Source: an uncultured Eubacteriales bacterium
Lineage (GTDB): Bacteria; Bacillota; Clostridia; Christensenellales; CAG-138
Direction: 5' to 3'
DNA: 64,000 nt
NCBI GenBank assembly: GCA_900545265.1
Contig: UQYI01000007.1
Coordinates: forward strand, 32,278-96,277
Positions within the stretch are counted from its first letter, which is position 1. The number at the start of each line of letters is the position of its first letter. Below the pieces are notes generated by a model that worked only from the letters and a program-made list of their open reading frames with translations, ran no database searches and was not told the DNA's origin. The position numbers and the translations under genes were made by a program. This document shows, one piece after another, positions 4,990-30,720 of the stretch.

Positions 4990-5113
4990 ATACACTTTCC
5001 CTCCTTTTTCAAGTATGCCGCACAGGGAAGGGACAACCAAAGGAGGCAGGTTACTGACGGGGGACTCCCCCGCTCCCGGACTACCTACCGGGACGTGTTT
5101 TTATCCCTGTTGT
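4990..5113 (-). ncRNA. Structured 5' leader, candidate yjdF-motif riboswitch
   Basis: Leader has several GC helices. A CCUCCUUU tract (5039-5046) is complementary to the SD. The genomic context matches the known yjdF motif association. Confidence 0.4.
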
Positions 5114-5119
5114 ATGGCG

Positions 5120-14675: not shown

Positions 14676-15034
14676 GGAAAATGCTCCTTTCGTTTTCGGC
14701 AGTACCGTATGGTATAGTGTGTCCCGGGTAGTCCGTTCCATACCTTACTACATTGTCCATGCAGGGTCTGCTTTTGATTTTATGGAGTATACCATATCTC
14801 TGCAAACGGATTGCAAACTTTTCTTGACCAAGGTGCAACATTTACACGGGAAAAGCAATCTCATAAAGCCATAACCGCCCTCTCCTTGCTTTTATGCTCC
14901 GTTTTATTCGCCGTTATTCATGGTCTTATCCTGGCCGTATTCCGATGGTGCCTTCAGATCTGCTGCATATTCTTTCCTGCACAAGTTTCATTTTCTCCCC
15001 CACTTCCTGTAAAAATGTTTATTTCAGCAAGAAA

Positions 15035-15056
15035 TGCAGGAGAAATTGCAGGAGAA
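15035..15056 (+). repeat. Direct repeat TGCAGGAGAA x2 (12-bp period) upstream of cluster promoter
   Basis: Exact 10-mers at 15035-15044 and 15047-15056. Confidence 0.6.
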
Positions 15057-15098
15057 GCGTTACAGAAAAAGCAATTATGAGAAAAAAGGAAAAAAAGC

Positions 15099-15127
15099 TT
15101 GCCAGCAGTCAGGCAGATGGTTAAAAT
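15099..15127 (+). promoter_or_regulatory. Candidate promoter of the 15-30 kb cluster
   Basis: TTGCCA - 17 nt - TAAAAT, about 80 nt upstream of the first gene. Confidence 0.3.
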
Positions 15128-15205: not shown

Positions 15206-16573
15206 ATGAAAAAGACTTGGCTTGCAATGCTTCTGGTTGTTGTGATGCTCTTCTCCCTGGTTGGCTGCTCCAATGAACAGGCCGATCAGAAGAGTGAACC
15301 CACCGCTGAACCCGTTGCAGAAGTCACCGAAGCCCCCACTGAGGCTCCTACCGAAGCGCCTACCGAAGCCCCCACGCCGGAACCCGTACAGGGCGTAAAG
15401 AAAGTCACCGTTCTGAACACTCTGGTCAAGGATCTTACTCCCGCCAAGGGCGAAGAGACCCGTTTCAACGCTTTCTGGCTTCCCTCCTACAATATTGGGG
15501 AGATCGCCGAAAAGAACTTCTACTTCATGCCCGAAGCCACTGATGTGGTGGCGGTGGTAGCCTATACCGACGGTTATACCGATGACGGCACCGATACCTA
15601 TGAGACTCTGGCAGCCAAAGGTCTGAGTCTCAAGTATACCGACGCCAAGGGCAACGAATATGATGTATTCACCGGCCCCACCCAGAAAAAGGACAACATG
15701 CCCCAGTTCATGGGCTATTTCACTGTAGGCCACGTCTGCGCCCTGTTCATGCAGCCCGACGGCTGGAACGTTAAGGAGCTTTTTGATGAGATCGCCATGG
15801 CTCAGGCCGATGCTTATGACTTTATCTGTGCCGACGGCTATTCCGAGACCATCCAGGCCGCCGATCTGGAAAAGGTGAGCATCTTTGATAAGGACGGTTC
15901 CATTGACGCTACCTCCATCGCTTACCCCGACTACACGCTCCAGAACATCCGCTATATCGTACCCACCGGCCTCACCAAGGAAAGCACTCCCGGTGAGGGG
16001 ATCCAGCAGATCGTTGTCATGCCCAATGCAGAAGGCATACTGGATACCGAAGCTCCTTACACCCTGAACTTCGGCGGCACCATTTATGAAGCCTATGCCG
16101 TGACCGACGTCATGGATAAGGCCGGCATCGCCTCTGATACCTGCAAGGCCATCTCCTGGAAGGACGGCTTCGAGTATGAGTACGATATGGAAGCTTTCAA
16201 AGCCTCTTACATCTGCCTGAACAACAAGAAGGGCAACGATGCCTTTACCTGCGGTCAGAAGCAGGCCTACAACGCCCTTTGCAAGAGTGCCGGCTACTAC
16301 GTCTTTGACGCTGACGCTCTGGTATACGTACCCTCTGTGGAATCTCTCCCCGATGGTTACACCGTAGCCGACCTGTTCAAGGCCATCGGCATGCAGGAAG
16401 CCGCCTCTTACAACTTCATCTGCGCTGACGGTTACAAGGAAGAGATCTCCGCCGACGAGCTGGCCAATGTGAAGCTGTTCATCAATGCTGCCGGTGACGG
16501 TGTGGATGCTACCTCCATCGCCTATCCCGATCAGAGCCTGATGAATATCCTTACCATCGAGCCTGCCGCATAA
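15206..16573 (+). CDS. Repeat-containing lipoprotein (unknown function)
   Basis: Lipobox LVGC, (TEAP)4 linker. Two ~65-aa internal repeats (YDFICADGYSETIQAADL..DATSIAYPD / YNFICADGYKEEISADEL..DATSIAYPD). Confidence 0.7.
   Translation: MKKTWLAMLLVVVMLFSLVGCSNEQADQKSEPTAEPVAEVTEAPTEAPTEAPTEAPTPEPVQGVKKVTVLNTLVKDLTPAKGEETRFNAFWLPSYNIGEIAEKNFYFMPEATDVVAVVAYTDGYTDDGTDTYETLAAKGLSLKYTDAKGNEYDVFTGPTQKKDNMPQFMGYFTVGHVCALFMQPDGWNVKELFDEIAMAQADAYDFICADGYSETIQAADLEKVSIFDKDGSIDATSIAYPDYTLQNIRYIVPTGLTKESTPGEGIQQIVVMPNAEGILDTEAPYTLNFGGTIYEAYAVTDVMDKAGIASDTCKAISWKDGFEYEYDMEAFKASYICLNNKKGNDAFTCGQKQAYNALCKSAGYYVFDADALVYVPSVESLPDGYTVADLFKAIGMQEAASYNFICADGYKEEISADELANVKLFINAAGDGVDATSIAYPDQSLMNILTIEPAA
15326..15373 (+). 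repeat. 4 x 12-nt in-frame tandem repeat encoding (TEAP)4
   Basis: acc gaa gcc ccc-type units read directly from the sequence. Confidence 0.9.
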
Positions 16574-16590
16574 GCAGACCTATCCCATCA

Positions 16591-16620
16591 GGGGATCCTC
16601 TTGCAGCAAGAGGATCCCCT
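16591..16620 (+). terminator. Strong hairpin (weak-U terminator/attenuator) after first cluster gene
   Basis: 12-bp perfect stem GGGGATCCTCTT/AAGAGGATCCCC followed by only TTTG. Confidence 0.4.
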
Positions 16621-16801
16621 TTGCATACTCCCTTCAAAGAAGAAAAACTCCCCTGTTTTCCGCTGAATCCGGCAAGAAAAAATGAGAAAATATAGATTCC
16701 CGGAAATCGGAGGAGTATACTTGTACATAGAACAGGTTGTCCGTTTTTCAACGGACAGATTGTTGCTCATTTTATCTTATAAGGAACCGGAGGATGTCAT
16801 T

Positions 16802-18616
16802 GTGAAAAGAACGCTCTCTCTTTGTCTGGCCCTGCTGATGGCTTTGACCCTTCTGGCTGGCTGCCAGAAGCAGCAGACTGCCGAAACGCCCAAAGAACCT
16901 TCTGCCACCGAGGCTCTCACCCAGGCAACCGCCGAACCCGTCCCCACGGAAGAGCCCATTAAGGGTGCTTATGAAGGAGACGATTACGGCACCGGCGCTG
17001 TTGGTGAATTTGGCGCTACCGCCTGCGCCGACCCCATTGCCGCCCAGATCGGCGTGGACATTCTGAAAGCCGGCGGCAACGCTGTGGACGCAGCCGTAGC
17101 CATGATCTATGCCGTTGGGCTTCTGGAGCCCGCTGCCTCCGGCATCGGCGGTGCAGGCCAGATGCTTATCTACCTGAAGGAGCAGGATCGCTACCTGGTG
17201 CTGGAATACATGACGCAGGCCCCCGGCGCTGCCGTGGCCGGTGAGATCAGCACCGATACCTCCTCCAATCCCCCCTCTCCCGAATCCATCGCCATCCCCG
17301 GTGTGGTGCACGGCACCATGACCGCTTTGGAAAAGTACGGCACCATGACTCCGGCTCAGGTGCTTCAGCCGGTCATCGATCTGGCCCGCAACGGTTTCAC
17401 TCTGCCGGAGCGCTGGAACACCAATCTGGAAGGCCGCTATGCCAACCTTTCCGCTTACCCCTATACCATGGGCATCTATACCGATGACGGCTTCTTCTAC
17501 AGCCATGGCCAGACCATCTATAATAAGGACCTGGCCGACACACTGGAGCTCATCGCCAACGGCGGCAAGGAAGCTTTCTACAACAGCGACTTCACCCAGA
17601 AGATGGTGGATTATATCCAGAGCATCGGTGGTCTGCTTACCCGGGAGGACTTCGCTCAGTACGAAACCAAAGAGCGGGAAGCCATCTCCACCACCTATCG
17701 GGGCAAGAAGGTCTATACCGTAGGCGGTCCCTCCAATGGTGGCACCGCCCTGCTGGAGATGCTGAACATCATGGAGAATTTCGACATGGCCGCTCTGGGT
17801 CACGACAGTATGGAGGCCGTTAAGGTCACCGCTGACGCCTACGCCATGGCCTGCATGGACGGCGTAGCCTTCATGGCCGACCCTGACTACTATAACCTGC
17901 CTACCGAAGAAATGATCAGCAAGGAATACGCTGCAGAGCGGGCCTCCAAGATCGATCTGACCACCTATCTCAAGAACGCCAAGAAGGGCAACCTTACCGT
18001 GACCCTTTCCGAGACCGGTGAAAAGGTAGATGCCGACACTACTCCCGATCAGGGCGGCACCACCCACCTGTCCGTTATGGATTCCTATGGCAACGTAGTT
18101 TCCACCACCAACACCAACGGTATCAACTTTGGCTCCGCCGTAGCCGTCCCCGGCACGGGCTTTGTATTCAGCGCTCATCTGGGCAATCTGAACAACTCCG
18201 CTACCGCCAAGGTCAACAAGCTCATGCCTTATATCCGGGTGCGCACCACCATCTGCCCCTCCATCGTGGCCGATGAAAACGGTGTTCCCTTCATGGCCGT
18301 AGGTTCCCCCGGCAACTGGGCGCTGGTTTCCGCCGTGGCCATCACCATCTCCAACGTCATTGATTATGACATGAACGTGGCGCAGGCCATCAATGCCCCC
18401 CGTATCTACCGGGATAAGAACAGCAAGCAGCTTTCCATCGAATCCCGCTATGGGGAGGAAGTGCTCCAGAAACTCACAGACCTGGGCTTTGAGATCAGCG
18501 ATGAAGGCGAGCTGGGTGCGCACGTAGGCTGCGTAGCCGCCATTTACCATGGGGCTGACGGCAAATTCTATGCCGGCGCAGATTACCGCCGTCTCTATGG
18601 CGCTGCCGCCTATTGA
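16802..18616 (+). CDS. ggt: Gamma-glutamyltransferase family lipoprotein (GGT/CapD-like)
   Basis: GTG start 8 nt after GGAGGA. Lipobox LLAGC. Autoprocessing/nucleophile context QGGTTHLSVMD, GSPGG-type C-terminal motifs. Confidence 0.9.
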   Translation: MKRTLSLCLALLMALTLLAGCQKQQTAETPKEPSATEALTQATAEPVPTEEPIKGAYEGDDYGTGAVGEFGATACADPIAAQIGVDILKAGGNAVDAAVAMIYAVGLLEPAASGIGGAGQMLIYLKEQDRYLVLEYMTQAPGAAVAGEISTDTSSNPPSPESIAIPGVVHGTMTALEKYGTMTPAQVLQPVIDLARNGFTLPERWNTNLEGRYANLSAYPYTMGIYTDDGFFYSHGQTIYNKDLADTLELIANGGKEAFYNSDFTQKMVDYIQSIGGLLTREDFAQYETKEREAISTTYRGKKVYTVGGPSNGGTALLEMLNIMENFDMAALGHDSMEAVKVTADAYAMACMDGVAFMADPDYYNLPTEEMISKEYAAERASKIDLTTYLKNAKKGNLTVTLSETGEKVDADTTPDQGGTTHLSVMDSYGNVVSTTNTNGINFGSAVAVPGTGFVFSAHLGNLNNSATAKVNKLMPYIRVRTTICPSIVADENGVPFMAVGSPGNWALVSAVAITISNVIDYDMNVAQAINAPRIYRDKNSKQLSIESRYGEEVLQKLTDLGFEISDEGELGAHVGCVAAIYHGADGKFYAGADYRRLYGAAAY

Positions 18617-18677
18617 TCCTCATTAACAAGCTGCGGCGGCAGGAAGCCTGCTTTCTGCCGCCGGGAAGGATTTTATT

Positions 18678-19961
18678 ATGCGTGAAGAATACATTCTCGC
18701 CATCGTAATGCTGGGACTGGTGGCTCTTGTGCTGGCCTTCACCAAAAACGACCGCAAATGGTGGACGCCTGCCCTGCTTCTGGCTGCCGTAGCAGGAAGT
18801 CTGGCGGCAGGCATGGGACTCCGGTTCCGGGAGATCGTAGAAGGTTCCTTTGGTTTTCTGGATGCTCTGCTGCCGGTAGTCATGGCTGCTTTGTTTTTGC
18901 GGATGCTCAAGGATAACGGGGCATGGGGTCTGCTTTTTGATAAACTTGCAGGCCGCAGCCCTCTTGGCGCCAGCTTCGGACTGCTGTTTTATCTGGCTCT
19001 GCCCGGGATGCTCACCGGATGCGCCAGCATGGGCGTGCTTATGAGCGCCGTCCCTGTCTATGACTATCTGCAAAAGAGAAACGTCCCCAAGTCCAAAGCC
19101 GTATCCTTTATTGCCGCCGGGTCTTTTCTGGGCATGATGCTGCCGCCCAACTGCCTGCCGGCCATCATTGCGGCCAACGGCGCTGGCAGTGTGCTTCCTA
19201 CCCCCTATGTTGGCTTCTTCCTGCCTCTGCTGGTGCTGAGCGCGCCGGCCTTCCTCCTCTGCGGTCTGCTCTTTGCCGGACTGTTTAAGGACGAACCCGC
19301 CGCCGCTCCTGCCGCTGAAAAAAAGGCCTCTTTGCTGCCGCTGTTCCCGCTGGGGCTGGTGCTCCTGCTGGTGCTGATAGACGGACTTCTGGGTTCCTAT
19401 TTGTATATCGGCGGCCAGACCCTTGTCTTTCTGATCGGGTTGGTGCTGGCAGCTCTGCTCCCCGCCGTAAAGCGGAATGCCAAAGGTGTCCTTTCCAGCC
19501 TGATGCAGGGCATTACAGACTGTGCCCTGCCTGTAGCAGCGGTATTTGCCCTTGGCTCTTTTATTGAAGTCAGCTCCATGAACGGCATCCGGGGCGTTTA
19601 CAGCCTGCTGATCCTGCCCTATTCCACTACGGCGGTGATGCTGGCGCTTATGGCTCTGAGTCTGCTGGTTGGCTTCTTCTTCTCCGCTCCCCTCCCGGCT
19701 TTCTTTATTGCCTACGCCGTATTTCCCATCGGCTGGCTGGCCAACACCGTTACCGTAACGGGCTGTGCCGCCGCCATCGGGCTGGCCTGGCTCATTGCCT
19801 GTCGGGGCGGGCTGGTATCTCTGGTAAGAGATGAGCTTTCTCTTCCGGAAGTATCCTACAAAGAAACAGTCCCCGGTCTGCTTCTGGCGGGACTGCCCGT
19901 GCTGCTTATGGCAGTGCTGCTGGTAGTCTTTGGAGACAGCATGACGGGTCTTATCCTGTAA
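18678..19961 (+). CDS. DctM-like (IT superfamily) permease, copy A
   Basis: 427-aa polytopic protein. GMLTGCASMGVLMSAVP and GMMLPPNCLPAIIAANG resemble DctM hairpin motifs. Paralog of 22122-23396. Confidence 0.65.
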   Translation: MREEYILAIVMLGLVALVLAFTKNDRKWWTPALLLAAVAGSLAAGMGLRFREIVEGSFGFLDALLPVVMAALFLRMLKDNGAWGLLFDKLAGRSPLGASFGLLFYLALPGMLTGCASMGVLMSAVPVYDYLQKRNVPKSKAVSFIAAGSFLGMMLPPNCLPAIIAANGAGSVLPTPYVGFFLPLLVLSAPAFLLCGLLFAGLFKDEPAAAPAAEKKASLLPLFPLGLVLLLVLIDGLLGSYLYIGGQTLVFLIGLVLAALLPAVKRNAKGVLSSLMQGITDCALPVAAVFALGSFIEVSSMNGIRGVYSLLILPYSTTAVMLALMALSLLVGFFFSAPLPAFFIAYAVFPIGWLANTVTVTGCAAAIGLAWLIACRGGLVSLVRDELSLPEVSYKETVPGLLLAGLPVLLMAVLLVVFGDSMTGLIL

Positions 19962-19974
19962 GGAGGGCAGCCAT

Positions 19975-20121
19975 ATGATTTCTATCGTCTATTATGCCGT
20001 CATCTCGCTGCTGAGTCTGCTGCTGCTGGCTTCCATGCTGAAAAAGCGCCCCGTGTACGAGCTCATTTCTCTGGCAGTGATCCTGGTGACCTTTGCCCTG
20101 CGGGCGCTGCACATCAAGTAA
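19975..20121 (+). CDS. 48-aa two-TM mini-protein, copy A (absent from ORF track)
   Basis: AGGAGGG RBS, ATG at 19975. MISIVYYAVISLLSLLLLASMLKKRPVYELISLAVILVTFALRALHIK. Paralog at 23412-23561 in the same position. Confidence 0.6.
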   Translation: MISIVYYAVISLLSLLLLASMLKKRPVYELISLAVILVTFALRALHIK

Positions 20122-20131
20122 GGAGGCTGCC

Positions 20132-21274
20132 ATGAAGAAATACACCCATATCTGGAAAAACCTTCTGGTACTGGCGCTGGCGCTGGTCTTTGCCGTCCCG
20201 GCCTCCATAGACTTTCTGGCCATGCACAGGCAGGAAGAAGTGGTTCAGACCTCTCAGCTGACGGAAGTCAAAATGCTTTCGGAATACTGCGAAGGACTTA
20301 AAGGCTCCGACCTGGATACGGAGATCTATATGTTTGACAGCGGCGTTCCCGGCGGCACCTTTCTGGTGCTGGGGGGCACCCATCCCAACGAATCCGCCGG
20401 TATGATGTCTGCCATCGCCATGATCGAAAACATTCAGGTCACGGCAGGCAAGGTCTATATTATGCCCTGGACCAACAAGAGCGGATTTACCCACACCTCC
20501 CCTCTGGACGGGATGCTGGACAGATTCTCCATCACCTTGGCGGATGGCTCCCAGCGAACCTTCCGCGTGGGCAACCGCCTGACCAATCCCGTAGACCAGT
20601 GGCCCGACCGGAACTTTTACGAAGGCTCCTCCGGCCGTAAGTTGGTAGGTACGGAAACGGCGGAGATCCGCAACGTCAACCGTCTGTACCCCGGCAATGA
20701 AAACGGCGTTCTCACCGAACGGGTATGCGCCGGGGTCAAGAACCTTATCAACGAAGAAAACGTGAGCATCGTCATGGACATGCACGAAGGCTCCCCGGAA
20801 TTTCTGTATCTGGATACCACCATGGCCCATGAACGGGCTTTGGACGTAGCCTCCCTCATGGCCATGGACATGAGCCTGGAAGGGCTGAACATGAAGGCAG
20901 AACTTTCCGGCATGACCTCTTACGGCCTGTCCCACCGGAGTCTGGGAGACAATACCAGCGCTCTGATGACCCTCATGGAGACCTACAACCCCTCCATGGG
21001 GCCGCTTCACGGAAAGATGGATGATGACCTCATTGTCAACGGAAACGAACCCAATTATTACGAAGCGCACAAGCAGGGCTACATCTACTACAACGTGAAG
21101 GAAAACGGCATCCCTCTTATCGAACGGATCGCCCGCCACATCACCTGTATCTCCCTGCTCAAGGATGCCTATAACACCTACCATGCCGATGCGCCCATTG
21201 AATTTACCTGCATCGGCAGCTACAGCGACATGATGGATCTGGGTCTTGAAAACATTTTTAAGCCCCTTTCCTGA
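20132..21274 (+). CDS. Signal-anchored AstE/AspA-family (M14-like) zinc hydrolase, copy A
   Basis: N-terminal TM. Zn motifs GGTHPNE and DMHEGS. NVNRLYPG motif typical of succinylglutamate desuccinylase/aspartoacylase family. Confidence 0.75.
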   Translation: MKKYTHIWKNLLVLALALVFAVPASIDFLAMHRQEEVVQTSQLTEVKMLSEYCEGLKGSDLDTEIYMFDSGVPGGTFLVLGGTHPNESAGMMSAIAMIENIQVTAGKVYIMPWTNKSGFTHTSPLDGMLDRFSITLADGSQRTFRVGNRLTNPVDQWPDRNFYEGSSGRKLVGTETAEIRNVNRLYPGNENGVLTERVCAGVKNLINEENVSIVMDMHEGSPEFLYLDTTMAHERALDVASLMAMDMSLEGLNMKAELSGMTSYGLSHRSLGDNTSALMTLMETYNPSMGPLHGKMDDDLIVNGNEPNYYEAHKQGYIYYNVKENGIPLIERIARHITCISLLKDAYNTYHADAPIEFTCIGSYSDMMDLGLENIFKPLS

Positions 21275-21308
21275 TAAAACGATCAAAAACTACGGAGGAT
21301 TTTACACT

Positions 21309-22028
21309 ATGAAAAAAATGATCGCCCTTATGATGGCCCTTATGTTCGTTCTGGCACTGGCTGCCTGCTCCAACGGCACCAAGGAACCCGAAGCTGCCCC
21401 CACGGCCGCCGCAGAGAACAACTCCTCTTCCGGCTATACCTCCTCTCAGGGGACTATTGACGGCTATGACCCCAACGAAAAGTCCGATTTTGTTATGAAC
21501 ACCAGCGAAAGCACCCGCACCTTTAACATGGGCGAAGCGGATGCTTCCCAGTTCAGCACTCCCATTCTGGTGACCTCCTTCGGTCAGAGCGCCGATGCCT
21601 CCATGATGGACGCCATCATGAAGAAGGCCGGTGTTGCCGACTATACCTTCAATGCTCTGGCCACCGCTGAGGATGTGAAGAACTACAAGACCGTTATCAT
21701 CGTCTGCGGCGCCAGCTCCAAGGGTCTGGGTGCTGCCGGTATCTCTGAGAGCGACGAAACCGCCCGTGCCGAAGCCATCATGACCGCTATCGGCGAAAGC
21801 AAGCCCGCCGTGATCATGTGCCATCTGGGCGGCGCTATCCGTCGTGGTGCGTTGTCTGATAAGCTTACCGACATGGTGTTGGATGTAGCCAACTACCTGG
21901 TGGTGGTGGAAGACGCCAACTATGACTATAAGTTCTCCAAGTTTGCCGAAGAAAAGAACGTGCCCCTCACCTTCCTGTATGCCATTGCAGACGGTGTGAG
22001 CGTGTTCTCCGGCCTGTTCAGCAAATAA
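21309..22028 (+). CDS. Lipoprotein of unknown family
   Basis: GGAGGA RBS, lipobox LAAC, Ser/Thr-rich linker. I recognise no motif. Confidence 0.7.
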   Translation: MKKMIALMMALMFVLALAACSNGTKEPEAAPTAAAENNSSSGYTSSQGTIDGYDPNEKSDFVMNTSESTRTFNMGEADASQFSTPILVTSFGQSADASMMDAIMKKAGVADYTFNALATAEDVKNYKTVIIVCGASSKGLGAAGISESDETARAEAIMTAIGESKPAVIMCHLGGAIRRGALSDKLTDMVLDVANYLVVVEDANYDYKFSKFAEEKNVPLTFLYAIADGVSVFSGLFSK

Positions 22029-22047
22029 GCCTGTCCCATGACGCTCC

Positions 22048-22100
22048 GGGGCGCCGGCCGCTTTCCCCTTACAAACGGCCGGCACCCCTTTCCCTTTTTA
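22048..22100 (+). terminator. Terminator-like hairpin between cassette A and B
   Basis: 13-bp stem GGGGCGCCGGCCG/CGGCCGGCACCCC (1 mismatch) followed by TTTCCCTTTTT. Confidence 0.4.
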
Positions 22101-22121
22101 TGAAACAGTGAGGAAAAGATT

Positions 22122-23396
22122 TTGAGTACGGAATTGCTGGTCCTGCTGGTGATGCTGGGGGTGTTCCTGCTGGGGAACCTGCTGTGCAAGCTCCCGGTAA
22201 GCCTGTCTATGATCCTGGGCGCCATTGCGGGTGCTCTGGTAGCCGGGGAGGGCATCCCCGTCCGGCATCTTTTTGAGGGATGCTTTACCTATATCGACAC
22301 CATCCTGATCATTTCCACCGCCATGTTGTTCATGACGGCCATTCAGCGCTCCGGGGCTCTGGAAGCCCTTAACGCACTGATCGTAACCAAGTTTTACAAA
22401 GCCCCGGCTCTGATGCTCATCCTTCTGATGTTCATCATCATGTTTCCGGGCATGATCACCGGCTCCTCCACCGCTGCGGTGCTTTCCGCCGGTGCCATTG
22501 TGGCCCCCATCCTGCTGAAAATCGGCATTCCCAAAGAAAAAGCCGGTGCCATTCTGGCCATCGGCTCCATCATGGGTATGGCAGCCCCACCGGTCAATAT
22601 TCCTGCCATGCTCATTGCCGGCGGCGTGGACATGCCTTATATCGGCTTTGAAGGCCCTCTGTTTTTGCTGACCATCCCCTGCGCCATCTTTACGGTTCTG
22701 TTCCTTGGGCTTAAATACTGCAAGGATCTGGATATCGAGGAGCTGAAAAAAGAACTGGATATGGAGATCGGCAAGCAATACGGCTTCAAACTCTATATCC
22801 CCATTCTGCTGCTGGTGGTGCTGCTGGTCCTCACCCGGGCTTTGCCCCAGTTTATGCCCCAGTTGGGCACACCCCTTATTTTCCTGATCTGCGCCGTAGT
22901 GGCTCTGTTCACCGGTAAACGCTTCAATGCCTGGCATGCCGGCCTGGAGGCCATGGATACCACCATCCCCGTGCTGGCAAAGCTTATGGGCGTGGGGATG
23001 TTCATCCAGATCCTGACTTTGACCGGCGCCCGGGGCTACATCGTGGTCAGCTGCCTGGGTCTGGGTATTGTCCTGCTGTATGCGGCGGTGTGCATTGTCA
23101 TGCCTGCCTTCGGGGCCGTCAGCTCTTACGGGGCCGCCAGCGTCATGGGCGTACCCTTCCTGCTTGTGCTGCTGGATACCGGGGACCAGATTACCCTGGC
23201 TGCTGCCCTTTCCTTTATCTGCTGCCTGGGCGATCTCATGCCGCCTACGGCTCTGGCCGGGAACTATGCCGCTCAGATTGTTGGGCTCAAATACAAGCCC
23301 GTACTCAAGCACTGCATCATTCCTTTCCTGGTGTGCATTGCACTGGGTCTTGCCTGTCTGCTGCTGTCCGGGTATCTGGGCTTTTTGACGGCATAA
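22122..23396 (+). CDS. DctM-like (IT superfamily) permease, copy B
   Basis: TTG start after GAGGAAAAG. ITGSSTAAVLSAGAIVAPIL and GMAAPPVNIPAMLIAGG closely resemble DctM motifs. Confidence 0.65.
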   Translation: MSTELLVLLVMLGVFLLGNLLCKLPVSLSMILGAIAGALVAGEGIPVRHLFEGCFTYIDTILIISTAMLFMTAIQRSGALEALNALIVTKFYKAPALMLILLMFIIMFPGMITGSSTAAVLSAGAIVAPILLKIGIPKEKAGAILAIGSIMGMAAPPVNIPAMLIAGGVDMPYIGFEGPLFLLTIPCAIFTVLFLGLKYCKDLDIEELKKELDMEIGKQYGFKLYIPILLLVVLLVLTRALPQFMPQLGTPLIFLICAVVALFTGKRFNAWHAGLEAMDTTIPVLAKLMGVGMFIQILTLTGARGYIVVSCLGLGIVLLYAAVCIVMPAFGAVSSYGAASVMGVPFLLVLLDTGDQITLAAALSFICCLGDLMPPTALAGNYAAQIVGLKYKPVLKHCIIPFLVCIALGLACLLLSGYLGFLTA

Positions 23397-23411
23397 GCAA
23401 AGGAGGAAGTT

Positions 23412-23561
23412 ATGATTCTCAAATATATCTATCTGGCTATTATCGCCCTTTTGCTGGTGTTTATCGTAGCCAATATGTTCCGCAAGGATAAGCTTTTGTA
23501 CCAGATCGATGCCGCTTTGGTGCTCATCCCTCTGGTGCTGCGGCTGCTGCTGATCAAGTGA
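23412..23561 (+). CDS. 49-aa two-TM mini-protein, copy B (absent from ORF track)
   Basis: AGGAGGAAG RBS. MILKYIYLAIIALLLVFIVANMFRKDKLLYQIDAALVLIPLVLRLLLIK. Shares the M(L/F)(K/R)K loop and L.IK end with copy A. Confidence 0.6.
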   Translation: MILKYIYLAIIALLLVFIVANMFRKDKLLYQIDAALVLIPLVLRLLLIK

Positions 23562-23571
23562 GGTGCTCATC

Positions 23572-24711
23572 ATGAAAAAAAAGATCCCTACCCGCATCCT
23601 CACCGCCTCCCTTCTGTGCCTGCTGGCCGTAGGCGCCATTGTGTACCTGGCTTTGCTGTTCACCTCCATGTGGCAGGACGAGCCCATTTACCCCGGCCCC
23701 GGCGTAACGGAAAAGCAGATGCTTTCCGACTACAATCCGGAGCTTAAGGGCACCAATGGCGACACGGAGATCTATGTGCTGGATTCCGGCGTTCCCGGCG
23801 CCTCCATTCTGGTGCTGGGAGGCACCCATCCAAACGAACCTTCCGGCGTGGTGGCAGCCGTTGCCCTCATTGAAACCTGCACCCCAAAAACCGGCGTCAT
23901 GTATGTCATCCCCCGGGCCAACCACAGTGCTTTTACCTGCACGGATCCCCAGGAAGCGGCTCCCATGTTTTATACCGTTCAGACCGCCGGCGGGGAGCGG
24001 ACCTTCCGCTTTGGCTCCCGGGCTACCAATCCCATCGACCAGTGGCCGGATTCTGATGTATATGTGCACCGCACCAGCGGTCAGACCCTTTCCGGCAGTG
24101 AGACCCGCAATCTGAACCGGGCTTATCCCGGCAGCAACAGCGGCACCTTCACTGAGCGGGTGACCTATGGTATTACGGAGTTCATCAAGCAGAACAACGT
24201 ATCCATCACCGTGGATCTCCACGAAGCTTCCCCGGAATATCCTACCATCAATGCCATCGTAGCCCATCAGGACGCCATTGAGCTGGCCAGCTGGGCCTCC
24301 ATGGATATGCAGATGGAAGGCATGACCATCAGCATCGAAGCCTCTCCCACCAACCTTCACGGTCTTTCCCACCGGGAACTGGGGGATTACACCGATACGC
24401 TGGCCGTGCTTATGGAAACGGCCAATGCCTCTCAGGGGCGCCTTCGGGGCCGCACCGATGCGGATCTGGTGGTCACCGGGCAGGATCACTACTACTATCT
24501 GGCCGGTAAATACGGCGCTCTGTATGTGGATTTCCCGGAAACCGGCATTCCCCTGGATGTGCGGGTCGCCCGTCATATCTGCGGTGTGGAACAGCTGTGC
24601 AACGCCTATAACGAACTGAGCGGCACGGATACCCTGGATCTGGGAGATCTTCCCTCCTATTCCGAGATCATTGCCAATGGTGTAGGCGCTTATCTGAACT
24701 CTGGAAACTAA
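23572..24711 (+). CDS. Signal-anchored AstE/AspA-family (M14-like) zinc hydrolase, copy B
   Basis: N-terminal TM, GGTHPNE, NLNRAYPG, DLHEAS. By eye it aligns along its full length with copy A. Confidence 0.75.
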   Translation: MKKKIPTRILTASLLCLLAVGAIVYLALLFTSMWQDEPIYPGPGVTEKQMLSDYNPELKGTNGDTEIYVLDSGVPGASILVLGGTHPNEPSGVVAAVALIETCTPKTGVMYVIPRANHSAFTCTDPQEAAPMFYTVQTAGGERTFRFGSRATNPIDQWPDSDVYVHRTSGQTLSGSETRNLNRAYPGSNSGTFTERVTYGITEFIKQNNVSITVDLHEASPEYPTINAIVAHQDAIELASWASMDMQMEGMTISIEASPTNLHGLSHRELGDYTDTLAVLMETANASQGRLRGRTDADLVVTGQDHYYYLAGKYGALYVDFPETGIPLDVRVARHICGVEQLCNAYNELSGTDTLDLGDLPSYSEIIANGVGAYLNSGN

Positions 24712-24731
24712 AGCCAGGCAAGGTGCTCTGC

Positions 24732-25676
24732 GTGAAAAGACTGTGTGTACTGACTCTGGGGCTGCTGGTGCTTCTATGCGCCTGTACCCCCGGAACATCC
24801 GAAAAGAAAGCGGAAGCCGCCCCCACGGCGGCTCCGCTGCAAACCCTTTCTCCCGATTCCGACGGTTCCCCGGAAGAATCTGCGCCTGCAACGGTGACCA
24901 TCAACGGCGAGACCTTTGCCTATGACGGCTTCCGGGTGCTGGAGCCGGAATGTGATCTGGATATCTACTCCATGGAGCCGAAGGACTTTACAGACGATTT
25001 TAACACCGTGTATGAGTGCCAGCGGGAAAGCTATCAGCTGACACCCGAAACGGAAACGGAAACCACCGTAGTCAGGATCACCGGGCAGGAACCGGGCCCA
25101 ACGGTCTACATTGCCGCCGGTATCCACGGGGATGAACGGGCTGCCTGGTTTGCCGGGCTCATGCTGCAAAAGATCACCATCCGGGCCGGCACGCTGTATG
25201 TCCTTTCTCCCGCAAATGCCAAGGGCGCAAAGGTCGTCAGCCGCATGGTAGGGGAAGAAGATCCCAACCGCTGCTTTCCCGGTCAGGAAGACGGCACCGA
25301 GGCCCAGCGCCTGTGCTATGCCATTTTCCATGACATTGAAGAAAAGGCTCCCGAGCAGCTGTTGGATCTGCACGAAGCCATCGTCTATAAAGAGGGCAGG
25401 GATTTTCTTGGCAGCACGTTGATCTATTCCTCACTGGATGGTATGCAGGATATGTTTTTTGACCTGCTCTTTGCCACTCAGGCAGGAGAAGTAACCTCCA
25501 CTTCCTTCGGCTATAACGGCCCTGGCCCTGCCGGAAGTATGAACCGCACCGTTACCGACCAGCTGCACATTCCTTCCATCACCGTGGAGACCTTCCGGGG
25601 CTTCCCCATAGAGCGGCGGGTGAAGGATCAGCTGAAAGTGGCCGCCTATGTGCTGCGGTATAAAGGGATGCTATGA
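24732..25676 (+). CDS. AstE/AspA- or MpaA-like M14 zinc hydrolase lipoprotein
   Basis: GTG start (24732 or 24723). Signal MKRLCVLTLGLLVLLCAC. AAGIHGDE, DPNRCFPG, LDLHEA motifs. Confidence 0.7.
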   Translation: MKRLCVLTLGLLVLLCACTPGTSEKKAEAAPTAAPLQTLSPDSDGSPEESAPATVTINGETFAYDGFRVLEPECDLDIYSMEPKDFTDDFNTVYECQRESYQLTPETETETTVVRITGQEPGPTVYIAAGIHGDERAAWFAGLMLQKITIRAGTLYVLSPANAKGAKVVSRMVGEEDPNRCFPGQEDGTEAQRLCYAIFHDIEEKAPEQLLDLHEAIVYKEGRDFLGSTLIYSSLDGMQDMFFDLLFATQAGEVTSTSFGYNGPGPAGSMNRTVTDQLHIPSITVETFRGFPIERRVKDQLKVAAYVLRYKGML

Positions 25677-26791
25677 CCATTGCCGGCCTGTTCATCTGCA
25701 TATTATGCCTGTTGTATCTCCTGTATCTGGGGGCAGAAAAGCTTCTTGCCCGCAGGTATAGGAGATCTTTGCTTCATGTGATCCAGGTAAACGGCATCCG
25801 GGGCAAATCCTCCACCGTCCGACTTGTTGATGCGGGCCTTCGTGCAGGAGGCTTTCGGGTGGTCAGCAAATCTACCGGCACTTTGCCCATGATACTGCAT
25901 ACCGACGGCCGGGAGGAGGAGATCCGCCGCCGGGCCCCGGCCAATATCCGGGAACAGCTCTCCCTGCTGGCTGCAGCGCATCGTGAGGGGGCTCAGATAG
26001 CCGTATGCGAATGCATGGCCATTTCTCCCGAGCTGCAGCGGGCCTCCCAGCAGATGCTTCAGGCGGATATCGCCCTGATCACCAACGTGCGGCTGGATCA
26101 TACGGATGTCATGGGCGCTACCCGAGAGGAAATTTGCGCTTCTCTGCTGCATATGGCCCCGGAAAAAGGACTGCTGATTACCGGAGAAGAGGATATGCTT
26201 CCCTTCATGCAGGCCGTCATGAAAAAAAGACAGGGCTGTGCAAAGCTGGCACTGCCCGATGCTGCCGGATACCCAGGTATTCCTGATTTTCCGGAAAATA
26301 TTGCACTGGCGCTGGCTGCCTGTGAAGCCGCTGGTGTTTCCCGGGCTGCCGCCCTGAAAGGGATGGAAAGTGTGCGCCGGGATCCCTATGCTTTTGAACG
26401 GCTGCAATGGGGGCATACGGTCTTTCTCAACGCCTTTTCTGCCAATGATGTGCAATCCACCCGAACGCTGTATGAAAAGAGCGGAGAAAAAGCCCCCCTT
26501 ATCCTGATCTTGAACAACCGCAAAGACCGTCCTGCCCGCGCACTGGAAATGAGTCGTCTGGCCCGGCTGCTGCCCGTCCGTGAAATATGGATTCTGGGAG
26601 AGCAGAAGGGCCTGATGCAGCGGCTGCTTCGGCGGCAAAATCCCTCCGTTCCTCTGCGCCGCTTTGACCGGGCAGAGGATATCCCTCTGGATTTTACGGA
26701 ACCCCGGGTGCTGCTGGGAGCCGGAAATATCAAAGGGCAGGGAGAAGCCCTGACTCTGCGCATACGCCGCCGGGCAAAGGAGGTAGAATGA
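25673..26791 (+). CDS. pgsB: Poly-gamma-glutamate synthase PgsB/CapB (Mur-ligase-type amide ligase)
   Basis: N-terminal TM, VNGIRGKSSTVRL P-loop, ECMAISPE, ITNVRLDHTDVMG. Collinear with Bacillus CapB from memory. ATGA overlap with the upstream gene. Confidence 0.9.
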   Translation: MTIAGLFICILCLLYLLYLGAEKLLARRYRRSLLHVIQVNGIRGKSSTVRLVDAGLRAGGFRVVSKSTGTLPMILHTDGREEEIRRRAPANIREQLSLLAAAHREGAQIAVCECMAISPELQRASQQMLQADIALITNVRLDHTDVMGATREEICASLLHMAPEKGLLITGEEDMLPFMQAVMKKRQGCAKLALPDAAGYPGIPDFPENIALALAACEAAGVSRAAALKGMESVRRDPYAFERLQWGHTVFLNAFSANDVQSTRTLYEKSGEKAPLILILNNRKDRPARALEMSRLARLLPVREIWILGEQKGLMQRLLRRQNPSVPLRRFDRAEDIPLDFTEPRVLLGAGNIKGQGEALTLRIRRRAKEVE

Positions 26792-27210
26792 GAGAAGAAA
26801 TCCTGGTGCTGGGGATACTTTGCAGCATCCTGTTTTATGAATGTACCCGTCTTTCCCCCGGAGGGCTGATCGTACCGGGGTATTTTGCCCTTTGCCTGCA
26901 ATCTCCCCTGCGCATTGGGTATACGCTTGGACTGGCTCTGCTCACATGGGGGGTCATGGCTCTGTTGTCTCAGGTGCTGATCCTGTATGGAAAGCGCCGG
27001 TTTGCTCTGTCTATCGTACTTTCCTATCTTTTGAACATGGCAGTTGTTGCCCTGGGCATACTGCCCTTTGAAATCAGCGTTATCGGGCTTATCATTCCCG
27101 GAATACTGGTGCGGGATATGGAAAAGCAGGGACCTGTTAAAACCATTTTGTCTCTTGGAATAGTCACCGGAGTATTGGGGCTTGTCATGCTCCTTATGGG
27201 GGCGCTGTGA
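26788..27210 (+). CDS. pgsC: Poly-gamma-glutamate synthase membrane subunit PgsC/CapC
   Basis: 140-aa, 4-TM. GGLIVPGYFAL, LYGKRRFA, IIPGILV match CapC hallmarks. ATGA overlap. Confidence 0.9.
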   Translation: MREEILVLGILCSILFYECTRLSPGGLIVPGYFALCLQSPLRIGYTLGLALLTWGVMALLSQVLILYGKRRFALSIVLSYLLNMAVVALGILPFEISVIGLIIPGILVRDMEKQGPVKTILSLGIVTGVLGLVMLLMGAL

Positions 27211-28298
27211 AGCGGCGGGAACTGGGCAAGGCCCTGTGTCTGCTGCTTACGATGCTGCTTCTTTTGGCAGGCGGGTTGATCAGCTACGAAAATGCTTTCA
27301 TGGAAAAACGGCCCGAGTATGACCGGATGTGTGATGCCGCCCGGCGCATGGAAGCCTGTATGGCCGAAATCAAAGCAGAAAGACTCCGCCGCGGCCTGCC
27401 GGTAGACGAAACGGAAGACATCTTTTCCACAGGCCTGCTGGGCACCGGGCATACAGCCATCACCACCACATTGGGAAATCTGGAGGCCAAGCGGACCTCC
27501 TGCCAGCGGGACATGGGCGCTCTGGTGCTGCGGCTGCTGCTGGAAGCCGGGGTCAAGGCCGGGGATCGGGTAGGCATATGCGCTTCCGGTTCCTTCCCCG
27601 CCCTGAACATTGCCCTTTTTTGCGCACTGGATGCGCTGGAGGCACAGCCGGCAGCCATTATATCTATCGGCGCCTCCACGTATGGGGCCAACCTGCCGGA
27701 ATTTACTGCCCCGGAGATGCTGTATCATCTGTATGAAAAAGGGCTTGTTTCCACCGCACCCCTGTATGCCACTCTGGGGGGAGACGGAGATATGGGGCAG
27801 AATATGGGGGCCGCTTTCTTTGAAGAAGAACAGGCAGTGCTGGAGCAGACTCTGACCCGGCTGGAAACAGCAGGCATTCCTCTGGTTTGTATACCCGACC
27901 GGCAGGAAAATCTTGTCTGGCGGGAGCAGGTATACGGCGATATCGACTGCTTTGTCAGCATAGGGGGGCAATCCATGGCCATGGGGGCTTATGAAGAAGG
28001 CTATGCCCTTGGGCAGGGAGTCCTGCGCCGGCAGCGGGTCAAAAACGGTGAAAGCTTCCTCCTTGGTCACTATCTGAATCTGGATATTCCTGTCACAGTG
28101 CTGCTGAACGTCCGCACTCTGTGTGCGGAATACGGCCTGCCCTTTGATCCGATTGCTCTTGCGCCCATCGGGGAAAATGCTTTATACTATAAAAAAACCT
28201 GTCCTAAGGTTCCGGTGCTGCTGGCACTGGGCCTTGGAGCAGGTATGCTGCTGCTGTACAGGAGATGGTTCGTATGGAAGGGCAGAAACCAAGAATAA
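27207..28298 (+). CDS. Bitopic protein in the PgsA position (likely 'poly-gamma-glutamate system protein' family)
   Basis: GTGA overlap with pgsC. N- and C-terminal TM. TTTLGNLEAKRTS segment recalls the PgsBC-associated family. Needs an HMM check. Confidence 0.55.
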   Translation: MKRRELGKALCLLLTMLLLLAGGLISYENAFMEKRPEYDRMCDAARRMEACMAEIKAERLRRGLPVDETEDIFSTGLLGTGHTAITTTLGNLEAKRTSCQRDMGALVLRLLLEAGVKAGDRVGICASGSFPALNIALFCALDALEAQPAAIISIGASTYGANLPEFTAPEMLYHLYEKGLVSTAPLYATLGGDGDMGQNMGAAFFEEEQAVLEQTLTRLETAGIPLVCIPDRQENLVWREQVYGDIDCFVSIGGQSMAMGAYEEGYALGQGVLRRQRVKNGESFLLGHYLNLDIPVTVLLNVRTLCAEYGLPFDPIALAPIGENALYYKKTCPKVPVLLALGLGAGMLLLYRRWFVWKGRNQE

Positions 28299-29701
28299 GA
28301 TACTCTTCCCTGCTTTTGGGCTGTGCGCTGCTGATACTGGGGCTGTTGATGCCCCTGCTGCTGAACGTAGGCAACATGGAAGTGTATACCTCCATGTACA
28401 AGGCATTCTCCCGGGATGAAAAAATATATGTGCTGGCAGCGGCTTTTCAGCTGCTGCTGCTGAACATTCTCCGAGGATACCCCAATTACCTGGGCGCTTT
28501 CTTTATTGCAGACAGTTTTTCCACCCTGACCCCCCGGCGCTACAAGAAGATCCTGCTGGGCTGCATGGTCTTTCCGCTGGTACTGCTGGAATACCGGCTG
28601 ATCCACCTGCTGTATGGCATAAACTATGCTTTTGGCGTACCTGCACTGCTGACCATTGCCATGATGCTGGTGCTGGCCATGGTGGATCTGACTCTTGTCT
28701 CCAATATAAAAAAGTGCTTTACGGTGTTCTTCTTTCATGGAGCCATCCAATGCCTGGATGTAATGCCCTCCCTCAGCGGCAGCTTCTTTGGTCAGGGAGA
28801 GACCACCCGTGAGATCCGTGCTGCCAGCGCCTTTTTGCAGGCGGATACCTTTTTGAATCTGTCTCTTCTATGCGTTTTCATTCTTCTGGCCCTGAGCGCC
28901 TGCCTGTATACGGTGCTGGTGGCGGATGAGAACCACATCCGTCTGGTAAGCCGCCAGAAGGAACAGCGGGAGCATGAGCTTATGATCGCCCGCATGAGCG
29001 AGGTGGAAAACCGCACCTACCGGGAGGTCTATCATGTAGCCCACGACCTGAAGACCCCCCTCACCTCCATCCAGACCATTATCGGCATCCTGGCGCTGGA
29101 AGAAAAGGAACCCCGGCGGCTCCAGCTGCTGCACGGGGTGGAAACCTCTGTAGAGCACATGAGCCGAATGATCACCGAGCTTCTGGATGAAACCCACGTC
29201 AGCCTGACCACCGCCGGAGATATCCTGCGGGAGGTCATGGCACAGGTATCCATTGCTCCCTATGTGCACTGCATTGAGCTTAAACAGCCTGCGGAAGATC
29301 TGTATGTCAATGCCAATCGCATCCGTTTTGACCGGATGCTCATCAATCTGCTGGAAAATGCCTATTATGCCCTGACCGATCATAAAAAAGGCGTCATTCG
29401 GCTGGAAGCGGATCGGGTATACCTGCAGGGAAACGGGAAAATACTTTCCCCGTCGGAGGTCAAAAACGCCGGAACGCCCTATGTACGCTTTCTGGTCAGC
29501 GACAATGGCCGGGGCATGGACGAAAAGACTGTGGCTTCCATCTTCCAGCGGGGCTTTTCCACCCGAGGCTCCAGCGGCCTGGGGCTGGTCTTTGTAAAAG
29601 AAGTTGTAGAGACCCACGGGGGGCTTGTACAGGTGGACAGCCACCCGCAAACCGGCACCACCTTTACCATTCTGATACCGGAGGAAGAAAGCGATGAGTG
29701 A
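28274..29701 (+). CDS. Multi-TM sensor histidine kinase
   Basis: About 6 TM N-terminal region. H-box VAHDLKTPLTSIQ, N-box LLENAYYAL, DNGRGMD, GSSGLGL. Confidence 0.85.
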   Translation: MEGQKPRIRYSSLLLGCALLILGLLMPLLLNVGNMEVYTSMYKAFSRDEKIYVLAAAFQLLLLNILRGYPNYLGAFFIADSFSTLTPRRYKKILLGCMVFPLVLLEYRLIHLLYGINYAFGVPALLTIAMMLVLAMVDLTLVSNIKKCFTVFFFHGAIQCLDVMPSLSGSFFGQGETTREIRAASAFLQADTFLNLSLLCVFILLALSACLYTVLVADENHIRLVSRQKEQREHELMIARMSEVENRTYREVYHVAHDLKTPLTSIQTIIGILALEEKEPRRLQLLHGVETSVEHMSRMITELLDETHVSLTTAGDILREVMAQVSIAPYVHCIELKQPAEDLYVNANRIRFDRMLINLLENAYYALTDHKKGVIRLEADRVYLQGNGKILSPSEVKNAGTPYVRFLVSDNGRGMDEKTVASIFQRGFSTRGSSGLGLVFVKEVVETHGGLVQVDSHPQTGTTFTILIPEEESDE

Positions 29702-30329
29702 GCCCACCAGGATTTTATGCATAGATGACGATGAACAGATCCGCTTTGCCCTTGGCGCTCTGTGCGAATCTCAGGGATGGCGGCCCTTGACCGCAGGAGA
29801 TGTACAGGAGGGCCTTTCCCTGTTCTTTCGCGAAAAGCCCGACATGGTGCTTATCGACTATCATATGCCCAGGATCAATGGAGTGGAAGGCGTCAAAATG
29901 CTTCGCCAGCTTTCGCAAACCGTTCCCATACTGGTATTCACCATCGATGACGATCAGGCCATAGCCGACGAGTTTCTCCGGGCCGGCGCCAACGATTTTG
30001 CCCTTAAACCCATCAAGGCCCCTGATCTCATCTCCCGGATAAAGCTCCATATTCGCCTTATGCAGGCACAGCGGGATCCCCACGGAAGCGCTTCCTGGAC
30101 AAAGGGCATCAGCCGGGTGACCATGGAGCTTATTATAGACGCCCTGAAAAAAGAAACGGAGCCCCGCACCGTCCAATGGATCGCCGAAAAAACGGGGCTG
30201 GCCACCCAAACCACATACCGGTATCTTCAATATATGGTATCCGAGCAGACGGTGGAAGCCCTGAATGTATACGGCAAAGTGGGTCGTCCCAAACAGAAAT
30301 TTATCCTCACCCTCAAAGGAGAAAAATAA
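29694..30329 (+). CDS. Response regulator, CitB/DcuR-like (REC + wHTH)
   Basis: ILCIDDDE, VLIDYHMP, ALKPIK REC residues. C-terminal KGISRVTMELI...GRPKQKF resembles the DcuR/CitT output domain. Confidence 0.85.
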   Translation: MSEPTRILCIDDDEQIRFALGALCESQGWRPLTAGDVQEGLSLFFREKPDMVLIDYHMPRINGVEGVKMLRQLSQTVPILVFTIDDDQAIADEFLRAGANDFALKPIKAPDLISRIKLHIRLMQAQRDPHGSASWTKGISRVTMELIIDALKKETEPRTVQWIAEKTGLATQTTYRYLQYMVSEQTVEALNVYGKVGRPKQKFILTLKGEK

Positions 30330-30601
30330 TGCCTGCTTCTTTGCTTTCCCAGTTCCTTCTTCGTTATGAACAGGCCGATACCCTCCCCGAAAAGGCCCTG
30401 GCTTTGTATAACGGCGGTTTCTGTGTTCTGGGTCGGGAAGGTCTTTCCCGGCTGTTGGGAGAGAATGCGGCCCCTTTTTTAGCCTATATACAGGCACTGC
30501 AGCAGGAGGATGCTGACGGCGGCCATGCGTTGGCCCACCTCCAGGATGCCCCTTCTTCCGCCCTGTTGGGATCGCTGTACGAAAAGCTCCGCACGCTTTG
30601 A
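30329..30601 (+). CDS. Hypothetical 90-aa protein, translationally coupled to regulator
   Basis: TAATG overlap, AAGGAG RBS. I recognise no motif. Confidence 0.45.
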   Translation: MPASLLSQFLLRYEQADTLPEKALALYNGGFCVLGREGLSRLLGENAAPFLAYIQALQQEDADGGHALAHLQDAPSSALLGSLYEKLRTL

Positions 30602-30683: not shown

Positions 30684-30720
30684 AAAAAAGCCGGGATATC
30701 GCTTCCCGGCTTCCTGTTTG
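30684..30720. terminator. Bidirectional terminator (cluster end / DUF1015)
   Basis: AAGCCGGGA-loop-TCCCGGCTT flanked by A6 and a T-rich tract. Confidence 0.65.

Follow-up and report, generated by a model that had tools for sequence, protein, structure and literature searches.

A poly-gamma-glutamate locus of the anaerobe type in an uncultured Eubacteriales bacterium, with a conserved accessory module of predicted surface hydrolases and DctM-like permeases

Knowledge of the biology of poly-gamma-glutamate (PGA) rests almost entirely on Bacillus. There GGT trims the polymer from its N-terminus and PgdS cuts it internally; PghP, a CPA-like zinc enzyme, degrades PGA as well, and CapD is a GGT-family enzyme encoded in the operon (PMC4497714). 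Fusobacterium nucleatum also makes PGA (Candela 2009, as cited in PMC3815933 and PMC4928254), and of its PGA genes reviews mention only those of the synthase. The present analysis concerns a cluster of sixteen genes on the + strand (positions 15206-30601) of a 64,000-nucleotide stretch from an uncultured Eubacteriales bacterium (GCA_900545265.1, contig UQYI01000007.1), referred to as a whole as the window. The cluster comprises a repeat-bearing lipoprotein, a GGT lipoprotein, a first permease, mini-protein and hydrolase triad (cassette A), a DUF6305 lipoprotein, a second such triad (cassette B), a third hydrolase, the genes pgsB, pgsC and TIGR04332, a histidine kinase with a response regulator (HK/RR), and a 90-codon open reading frame (ORF). 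By its gene content it probably encodes a system that makes, trims and re-imports PGA, combining a synthase with surface turnover and uptake. For F. nucleatum, the 2009 study of Candela et al. reportedly describes a cluster of three genes only, pgsB, pgsC and a third gene, which we take to be TIGR04332.

The synthase trio is the best defined part of the cluster. The ligase subunit PgsB (25673-26791) scores 269.5 bits against the curated equivalog cut-off of 222.7 for TIGR04012 and contains a Mur_ligase_M domain, and the membrane subunit PgsC (26788-27210) scores 102.1 bits against the curated equivalog cut-off of 96.45 for TIGR04011 and contains the CapC Pfam domain, in agreement with the identities proposed in the initial annotation of the window. 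The gene that follows (27207-28298) overlaps the stop codon of pgsC and encodes a protein with an N-terminal and a C-terminal transmembrane (TM) segment. This bitopic protein had been noted for its location in the PgsA position; profile hidden Markov models (HMMs) identify it as the poly-gamma-glutamate system protein TIGR04332 (290.7 bits, cut-off 100). None of the sixteen cluster proteins matches PGA_cap (PgsA/CapA). Judged by these families, the cluster is an anaerobe-type PGA locus with a TIGR04332 protein in place of PgsA, and its PgsB-PgsC-TIGR04332 trio is of an already known type. Following the Bacillus model, PgsB would work on the inner side of the membrane as an amide ligase that depends on ATP and, together with PgsC and TIGR04332, would polymerise glutamate and extrude the chain. 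A sequence search of the PDB gave no match for TIGR04332 and only FolC for PgsB, and ten TIGR04332 proteins scanned permissively against Pfam revealed no consistent family. An apparently truncated pgsB in another contig (L170) proved to be an artefact of a scaffold N-gap.

The other genes of the cluster recur together with the synthase. We scanned one genome per species for relatives of the triad hydrolases with a 10-sequence alignment, a 24-sequence alignment being too diverse, and obtained at least 576 in species-representative genomes. The sixteen window proteins were mapped onto the best 80 hydrolase loci. Among the 34 species loci flanked by at least 6 kb on either side, the permease was present in all 34, GGT in 33, DUF6305 in 32, pgsB in 22 and HK/RR in 19; the triads are thus linked to pgsBC in other genomes as well, a point on which the initial annotation had made its proposal depend. 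The reverse scan, from TIGR04332 in metagenomes, yielded 35 loci with at least 9 kb upstream, which contain DUF6305 (32), the permease (31), hydrolase B (28) and GGT (27), and in which the module lies upstream of, divergent from or downstream of the synthase. The core order is GGT-DUF6305-permease-mini-protein-hydrolase-(hydC)-pgsB-pgsC-TIGR04332-(HK-RR), and is found in F. nucleatum, F. gastrosuis, Treponema vincentii, Clostridium tetanomorphum and Varibaculum timonense. Further carriers are Paratissierella segnis, Anaerotruncus sp. G3, Tepidanaerobacter, and metagenome-assembled genomes (MAGs) of Negativicutes, Halanaerobiales, deltaproteobacteria and Mesoterricola. Linkage of pgsB-pgsC-TIGR04332 to the triad, GGT and DUF6305 extends over at least five phyla, among them Bacillota, Fusobacteriota, Spirochaetota and Actinomycetota. 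Since this linkage survives rearrangement across phyla, it is strong evidence of shared function, and by this distribution the accessory genes are a conserved module linked to the synthase.

Several genes of the module are also found fused. In one contig (L171 8001-10211, protein P0167) the TIGR04332 domain is joined to a triad-type hydrolase directly after pgsB-pgsC; in another (L172 3241-5367, P0146) a triad hydrolase is joined to DUF6305 and follows a DctM permease and a 54-aa mini-protein. Other fusions are hydB::hydC, PgsC::TIGR04332 and TIGR04332::orf90; further coordinates of fusion-bearing loci are L029 9920-11887, L035 3883-5919, L116 6419-8386 and L059 5489-6964. Two genes for Peptidase_C69 dipeptidases lie on the L171 contig as well, whose examined stretch has no called GGT.

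The sixteen genes might instead be chance neighbours, a run of unrelated operons with only their strand in common. Folding confirmed strong hairpins near both positions named by the initial annotation, and found a third: a 14-bp hairpin after the first gene (16590-16620, -27.1 kcal/mol, z -4.4), one after GGT (-26 kcal/mol), and one with a U-rich tail after DUF6305 (22048-22088, -29.6 kcal/mol). Each of these could end a transcript, as possible internal terminators or attenuators, and they may divide or attenuate transcription of the cluster. Against an accidental arrangement stand the fusion of some of the genes and the fact that the set recurs in over 100 loci of distant phyla, and we consider such an arrangement highly improbable.

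Three hydrolases of the AstE/AspA (M14) type are encoded in the cluster. Hydrolases A (hydA, 20132-21274) and B (hydB, 23572-24711) are signal-anchored members of the cassettes, and hydrolase C (hydC, 24732-25676) is a lipoprotein whose stop codon overlaps the start of pgsB. With 26.2, 32.5 and 49.0 bits, respectively, all three pass the AstE_AspA_cat cut-off of 25, as expected from their earlier description as exported enzymes of this type. By a simple inspection of hydropathy and lipoboxes, hydC, GGT, DUF6305, the first lipoprotein and the catalytic domains of hydA and hydB are assigned to the outside of the membrane. HydC is homologous to the triad hydrolases (hhalign, 99.8%), and the closest solved relatives of the hydrolases are AstE/AspA-family proteins and the deacetylase DoeB. 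Across 24 sequences of the triad family H86, E89, R150, R183, H217 and E282 never vary and N182 hardly does; these residues make up the zinc site, carboxylate clamp and catalytic Glu of the M14/AstE-AspA type. AstE acts on N-succinyl-glutamate, a compound that closely resembles the gamma-glutamyl-glutamate at the C-terminus of PGA. Because of this likeness, the triad hydrolases and hydC may be exo-acting gamma-glutamyl carboxypeptidases, and the membrane-anchored enzymes would free glutamate or short gamma-glutamyl peptides beside the membrane.

The GGT lipoprotein (16802-18616) matches PF01019 at 1e-125 and TIGR00066 with 407.5 bits (cut-off 357.85), and retains the GGTTH motif with the autoprocessing Thr nucleophile, so family score and motif both agree with its original assignment. 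Its start most likely lies at 16802, as first proposed, and not at the position that gives the 631-aa product of the gene caller, because a signal peptide and a ribosome-binding site (RBS) are located there. A lid loop restricts E. coli GGT to small substrates, and the lid-less Bacillus enzyme takes polymeric PGA. The GGTs of these clusters have the lid-region length of the lid-less B. licheniformis GGT. A lid-less surface GGT of this kind would cleave gamma-glutamyl bonds in the way of the Bacillus enzyme, which works from the N-terminus. Two classes of GGT are apparent in the comparison of loci L010-L037 with L039-L089. The enzymes of one-cassette loci carry the canonical LNNEMDDF...PLSSMSPT, and those of two-cassette loci, including the window, carry FxF[SNT]AHL[GS]NL...RVRSTxCP. 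The window enzyme has H and N at the positions of E. coli Q430 and D433, which bind the donor alpha-amino group (FSAHLGNL against LNNQMDDF); this altered pocket may confer a different donor specificity on the GGTs of two-cassette loci.

GGT is also the classical glutathione hydrolase, and in one-cassette loci its donor pocket is the canonical one. The unit of GGT, DUF6305 and triad could be a scavenger of small compounds with a gamma-glutamyl group, for instance glutathione, gamma-glutamyl peptides or the gamma-D-Glu-meso-diaminopimelate (mDAP) stems of peptidoglycan, and lie next to pgsBC without sharing its substrate. F. nucleatum uses glutathione, according to an entry in the reference list of PMC12940168. 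M14/M99 enzymes cut gamma-D-Glu-mDAP, three members of the triad-hydrolase family give weak Peptidase_M99 matches, and the module exists without pgsBC nearby. Scavenging of small compounds would leave unexplained the linkage to pgsB-pgsC-TIGR04332, which holds in at least five phyla despite shuffled gene order, and the fusion of the hydrolase to TIGR04332; it also fits poorly with the lack of the lid loop in all cluster GGTs. We regard this explanation as improbable, and PGA as the better candidate for the substrate of the module.

Uptake is suggested by the permeases. Permease B (22122-23396, ~13 TM) matches the DctM family over its full length with 49.9 bits (cut-off 23.8) and gives a weak match to a solved DctMQ structure; permease A (18678-19961, ~12 TM) is more distantly DctM-like. 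The cassettes A and B are true paralogues, their hydrolases being 43% and their permeases 31% identical, and B represents the ancestral core copy. Between permease and hydrolase each cassette encodes a mini-protein with two TM segments: mini-protein A (19975-20121, 48 aa) ends in ...ALRALHIK, and mini-protein B (23412-23561, 49 aa) carries the C-terminal motif AALVxIPLxLRLLLIK. The two are homologous at the profile level (hhalign probability 97.7%). In 86 or more of the 98 pairs of permease and hydrolase, the constant gap of ~170 nt is occupied by a two-helix ORF of 47-50 aa with the C-terminal motif conserved, and by this conservation the mini-protein is a real gene. Together with this dedicated two-TM subunit, the DctM-like secondary permease would import glutamate or short gamma-glutamyl peptides. 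No cluster protein matches the DctQ, DctP or TAXI families. The permeases had been described as lacking a substrate-binding protein, which is correct for the known binding-protein families and cannot be extended beyond these, since lipoproteins without assigned function occur in the cluster.

The lipoprotein between the cassettes (21309-22028), initially regarded as an orphan, is a DUF6305 protein (150 bits) and a core member of the conserved module. Its predicted model, with a pLDDT (predicted local distance difference test) of 84, has a flavodoxin-like alpha/beta fold, and three loops are invariant in the family (TSxGQSxD, GASxKGxGAAG and HxGGxxRRG). With its invariant polar and Arg-Arg pocket, DUF6305 would assist the hydrolase as an accessory partner in binding or catalysis. 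A sequence search of the PDB found no match for DUF6305 or for the first lipoprotein of the cluster. Homology between DUF6305 and TIGR04332 was considered and is unsupported (hhalign probability 27%).

Compared with the core, the window represents an expanded variant, in which an extra cassette (A) lies between GGT and DUF6305, a repeat lipoprotein is added and the GGT is divergent. The repeat lipoprotein (15206-16573, 455 aa) is found in two-cassette loci only. It has the lipobox LVGC, a TEAP linker and, as previously noted, two internal repeats of ~150 aa (38% identity, E 1e-23); it matches no family, and its single-sequence AlphaFold model (pLDDT 35) shows no usable fold. The nearest relatives of the window are the loci L010 and L068, and the closest species representative is 'uncultured Clostridiales RUG472', with 80% identity in hydB. 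The ten genes from the repeat lipoprotein to hydC form a front block in which A-to-A and B-to-B orthology is kept. This block occurs in three arrangements: with pgsBC downstream (window, L010 and L068), with pgsCB divergent upstream (Oscillospiraceae), and with no pgsBC within 10 kb (Sphaerochaetaceae and Lachnospiraceae). The Sphaerochaetaceae/Spirochaetales MAGs with the block are L014, L021, L023-L028, L030, L031 and L033; in two Sphaerochaetaceae loci, L023 and L031, the annotated flanks are unrelated to each other. In two Lachnospiraceae loci (L004 12367-13553 and L007 12200-13386) a conserved gene pair lies 3' of the block and encodes a 127-aa protein without family and a 268-aa hexapeptide-repeat protein resembling serine acetyltransferases. 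HydB and permease B are 61-77% identical between the Spirochaetales and Clostridia versions of the block. Given this identity across phyla, the block looks like one that moved as a unit by horizontal transfer. Its occurrence alone, without nearby pgsBC, suggests that it can work without an adjacent synthase, as a stand-alone scavenging unit. The sixteen genes had been described as a self-contained module; the linkage implied by this term is indeed shared with other genomes, whereas the cluster as a whole is a composite of three evolutionary modules and not one indivisible unit.

The stand-alone blocks bear on the main rival explanation, in which the accessory proteins belong to the machinery that makes and exports the polymer. 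The hydrolases and GGT would then free the growing chain, set its length or anchor it where it leaves TIGR04332, in the manner of CapD and PgdS, and the permease would provide the synthase with glutamate or with ion exchange. The TIGR04332::hydrolase fusion directly after pgsB-pgsC agrees with this, as do the overlap of hydC with the start of pgsB, the presence of the module in nearly every TIGR04332 locus, and the encoding of CapD and PgdS in or beside Bacillus operons (PMC4497714). A pure maturation device would be useless in the many genomes where five- and ten-gene modules lie between unrelated flanks with no pgsBC within 10 kb, and the chemistry of AstE/AspA enzymes, which frees a single amino acid, fits exo-trimming better than sizing. 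We therefore hold a role in synthesis and export to be possible, though on balance unlikely.

The preferred reading, that the locus makes, trims and re-imports PGA, agrees with the initial annotation and draws on gene linkage and fusions; its trimming and re-import steps derive from family chemistry together with linkage. We infer what the module acts on, which way the permease transports and what the locus does for the cell, be it an extracellular glutamate reserve or capsule turnover. Several observations weigh against this reading. No match to PF05908 (PghP) was found at E<=1 for the 24 members of the hydrolase family or for hydC. Permease A scores 18.1 bits against DctM, under the cut-off of 23.8, so that of the two DctM-like permeases originally claimed only permease B passes. 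A Foldseek search with the DUF6305 model returned generic flavodoxin-like, SGNH-like and dehydroquinase neighbours at TM-scores of at most 0.5, and its function is therefore not readable from the fold. Each of the fusions is represented by a single metagenomic contig and amounts to supporting evidence, not proof, and the TIGR04332::hydrolase fusion would fit a hydrolase in the synthesis and release machinery as well as one in salvage. Finally, loci counted as lacking pgsBC lack it within 10 kb, which says nothing of the rest of the genome.

More speculatively, the permease, mini-protein and hydrolase might constitute a new class of enzyme-coupled tripartite transporter, a proposal that we advance tentatively and with considerable doubt. 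In such a transporter the M14-type hydrolase, aided by DUF6305, would replace the binding protein of TRAP systems and hand the freed glutamate to a DctM-like elevator permease stabilised by the two-TM 'mini-Q', the polymer itself not being transportable. If this is true, PGA would be a shared extracellular glutamate store of gut and oral anaerobes, which carriers of the module without the synthase could exploit.

All sixteen ORFs of the cluster are present in the ORF list of the window at the coordinates first given for them, and in identical public contigs the public gene callers place the same sixteen genes and none on the minus strand; long antisense ORFs in the cluster are mechanical only. 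The reported overlaps of stop and start codons are likewise all there: ATGA at 25673 and 26788, GTGA at 27207, TAATG at 30329, a 25-nt overlap at 28274/28298, and ATGAGTGA at 29694. Gaps within the triads measure 10-15 nt, and an RBS precedes each gene. A promoter-like site (TTGCCA-17-TAAAAT, 15099-15127, +; a consensus match only) lies upstream of the first gene. Some 45 nt 5' of its -35 element a direct repeat, TGCAGGAGAA, occurs twice with a spacing of 12 nt (~15036-15057); it could be a binding site for a regulator. A search for operator motifs common to the intergenic regions of the cluster gave nothing convincing.

The cluster would be controlled by its own two-component system. The histidine kinase (28274-29701) has HisKA and HATPase domains and a multi-TM N-terminal sensor region without family match, and the response regulator (29694-30329) has a receiver domain. 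These HMM matches bear out the two-component system; the CitB/DcuR-type output ascribed to it comes down to a weak DpiA/CitB-like helix-turn-helix match, with HTH_64 at 22.1 bits (under the cut-off of 27) and NCBIfam DpiA at 44 bits against 264, in the C-terminal part only. The last gene, orf90 (30329-30601), encodes a soluble protein of 90 aa without family match. In relatives it lies directly 3' of TIGR04332 or is fused to its C-terminus (L094 9635-11389; L096 1414-3162), and in the window the HK/RR pair (28274-30329) sits between TIGR04332 and orf90 as if inserted. A terminator-like hairpin (30688-30712, +) closes the cluster, and the next gene is convergent.

Genes of the LytR-CpsA-Psr family, whose members ligate polymers to the cell wall, are found on both flanks (13257-14741 and 33320-34363, both on the - strand), and a gene with a NAGPA domain lies downstream. 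Elsewhere in the window, an azaaromatic (yjdF) riboswitch aptamer occupies 5013-5114 on the - strand (86.5 bits, gathering score 45), and the segment 62001-64000 has a G+C content of 0.40 against ~0.55 in the rest, and may be foreign or AT-rich DNA. The exact proteins encoded at 15206-16573 and 25673-26791 occur in 999 and 605 blocks, respectively, of a public assembly index, mostly in ENA metagenome assemblies, and the source species is therefore very common in gut metagenomes.

The synthase trio of F. nucleatum has the same genes, order and overlaps as that of the window, and in strain SB042 (L061) GGT, DUF6305, permease and hydrolase lie directly upstream of the trio, as they do here. The window goes beyond the F. 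nucleatum type by the second cassette, the repeat lipoprotein, hydC, the HK/RR pair and orf90. Full-text literature searches returned nothing on DUF6305, on TIGR04332, on pgsB and pgsC with DctM, or on succinylglutamate desuccinylase with PGA, and in the library searched no paper reports a cluster of this composition. The initial annotation had supposed the composition to be new, and these searches agree: the trio alone is known, and the conserved accessory module and its expanded form appear to be undescribed. The anaerobe-type system, known until now as three genes only, is accompanied in nearly all cases by one recurring set of five to seven further genes, some of them fused to a synthase component. 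This gives a concrete set of parts to test when asking how anaerobes of the gut, rumen and mouth, including the cancer-associated F. nucleatum and Treponema vincentii, make, remodel and possibly re-use PGA; it also places DUF6305, an exported AstE/AspA branch and a conserved membrane protein of 48 aa in a biological setting.

The loci of Bacillus subtilis (pgsBCAE with pgdS and ggt) and B. anthracis (capBCADE) likewise place a PgsB/PgsC synthase beside or with secreted PGA-cleaving enzymes. In contrast to these, the window cluster lacks PgsA/CapA and PgsE, contains a permease, mini-protein and DUF6305 that are absent from Bacillus loci, and has AstE/AspA-type zinc enzymes as its candidate depolymerases where Bacillus has PgdS of the NlpC/P60 type. 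PghP offers a precedent for a CPA-like zinc enzyme cutting PGA, although the window hydrolases do not match its family, PF05908. With AstE and AspA these hydrolases share the HxxE...H zinc site, the Asn-Arg carboxylate clamp and the catalytic Glu. The known enzymes AstE, AspA and DoeB are cytoplasmic, whereas those of the window are exported or membrane-anchored and carry an insertion of ~50 aa with the motif GSRxTNPxDQWPD. The triads resemble TRAP transporters (DctP-DctQ-DctM) in combining three genes, for a large permease of the DctM family, a small partner in the membrane and a third component outside the cytoplasm. They differ from them in that the small partner has two TM segments instead of four and the third component is a membrane-anchored zinc hydrolase, a possible transporter architecture with an enzyme in place of the binding protein.

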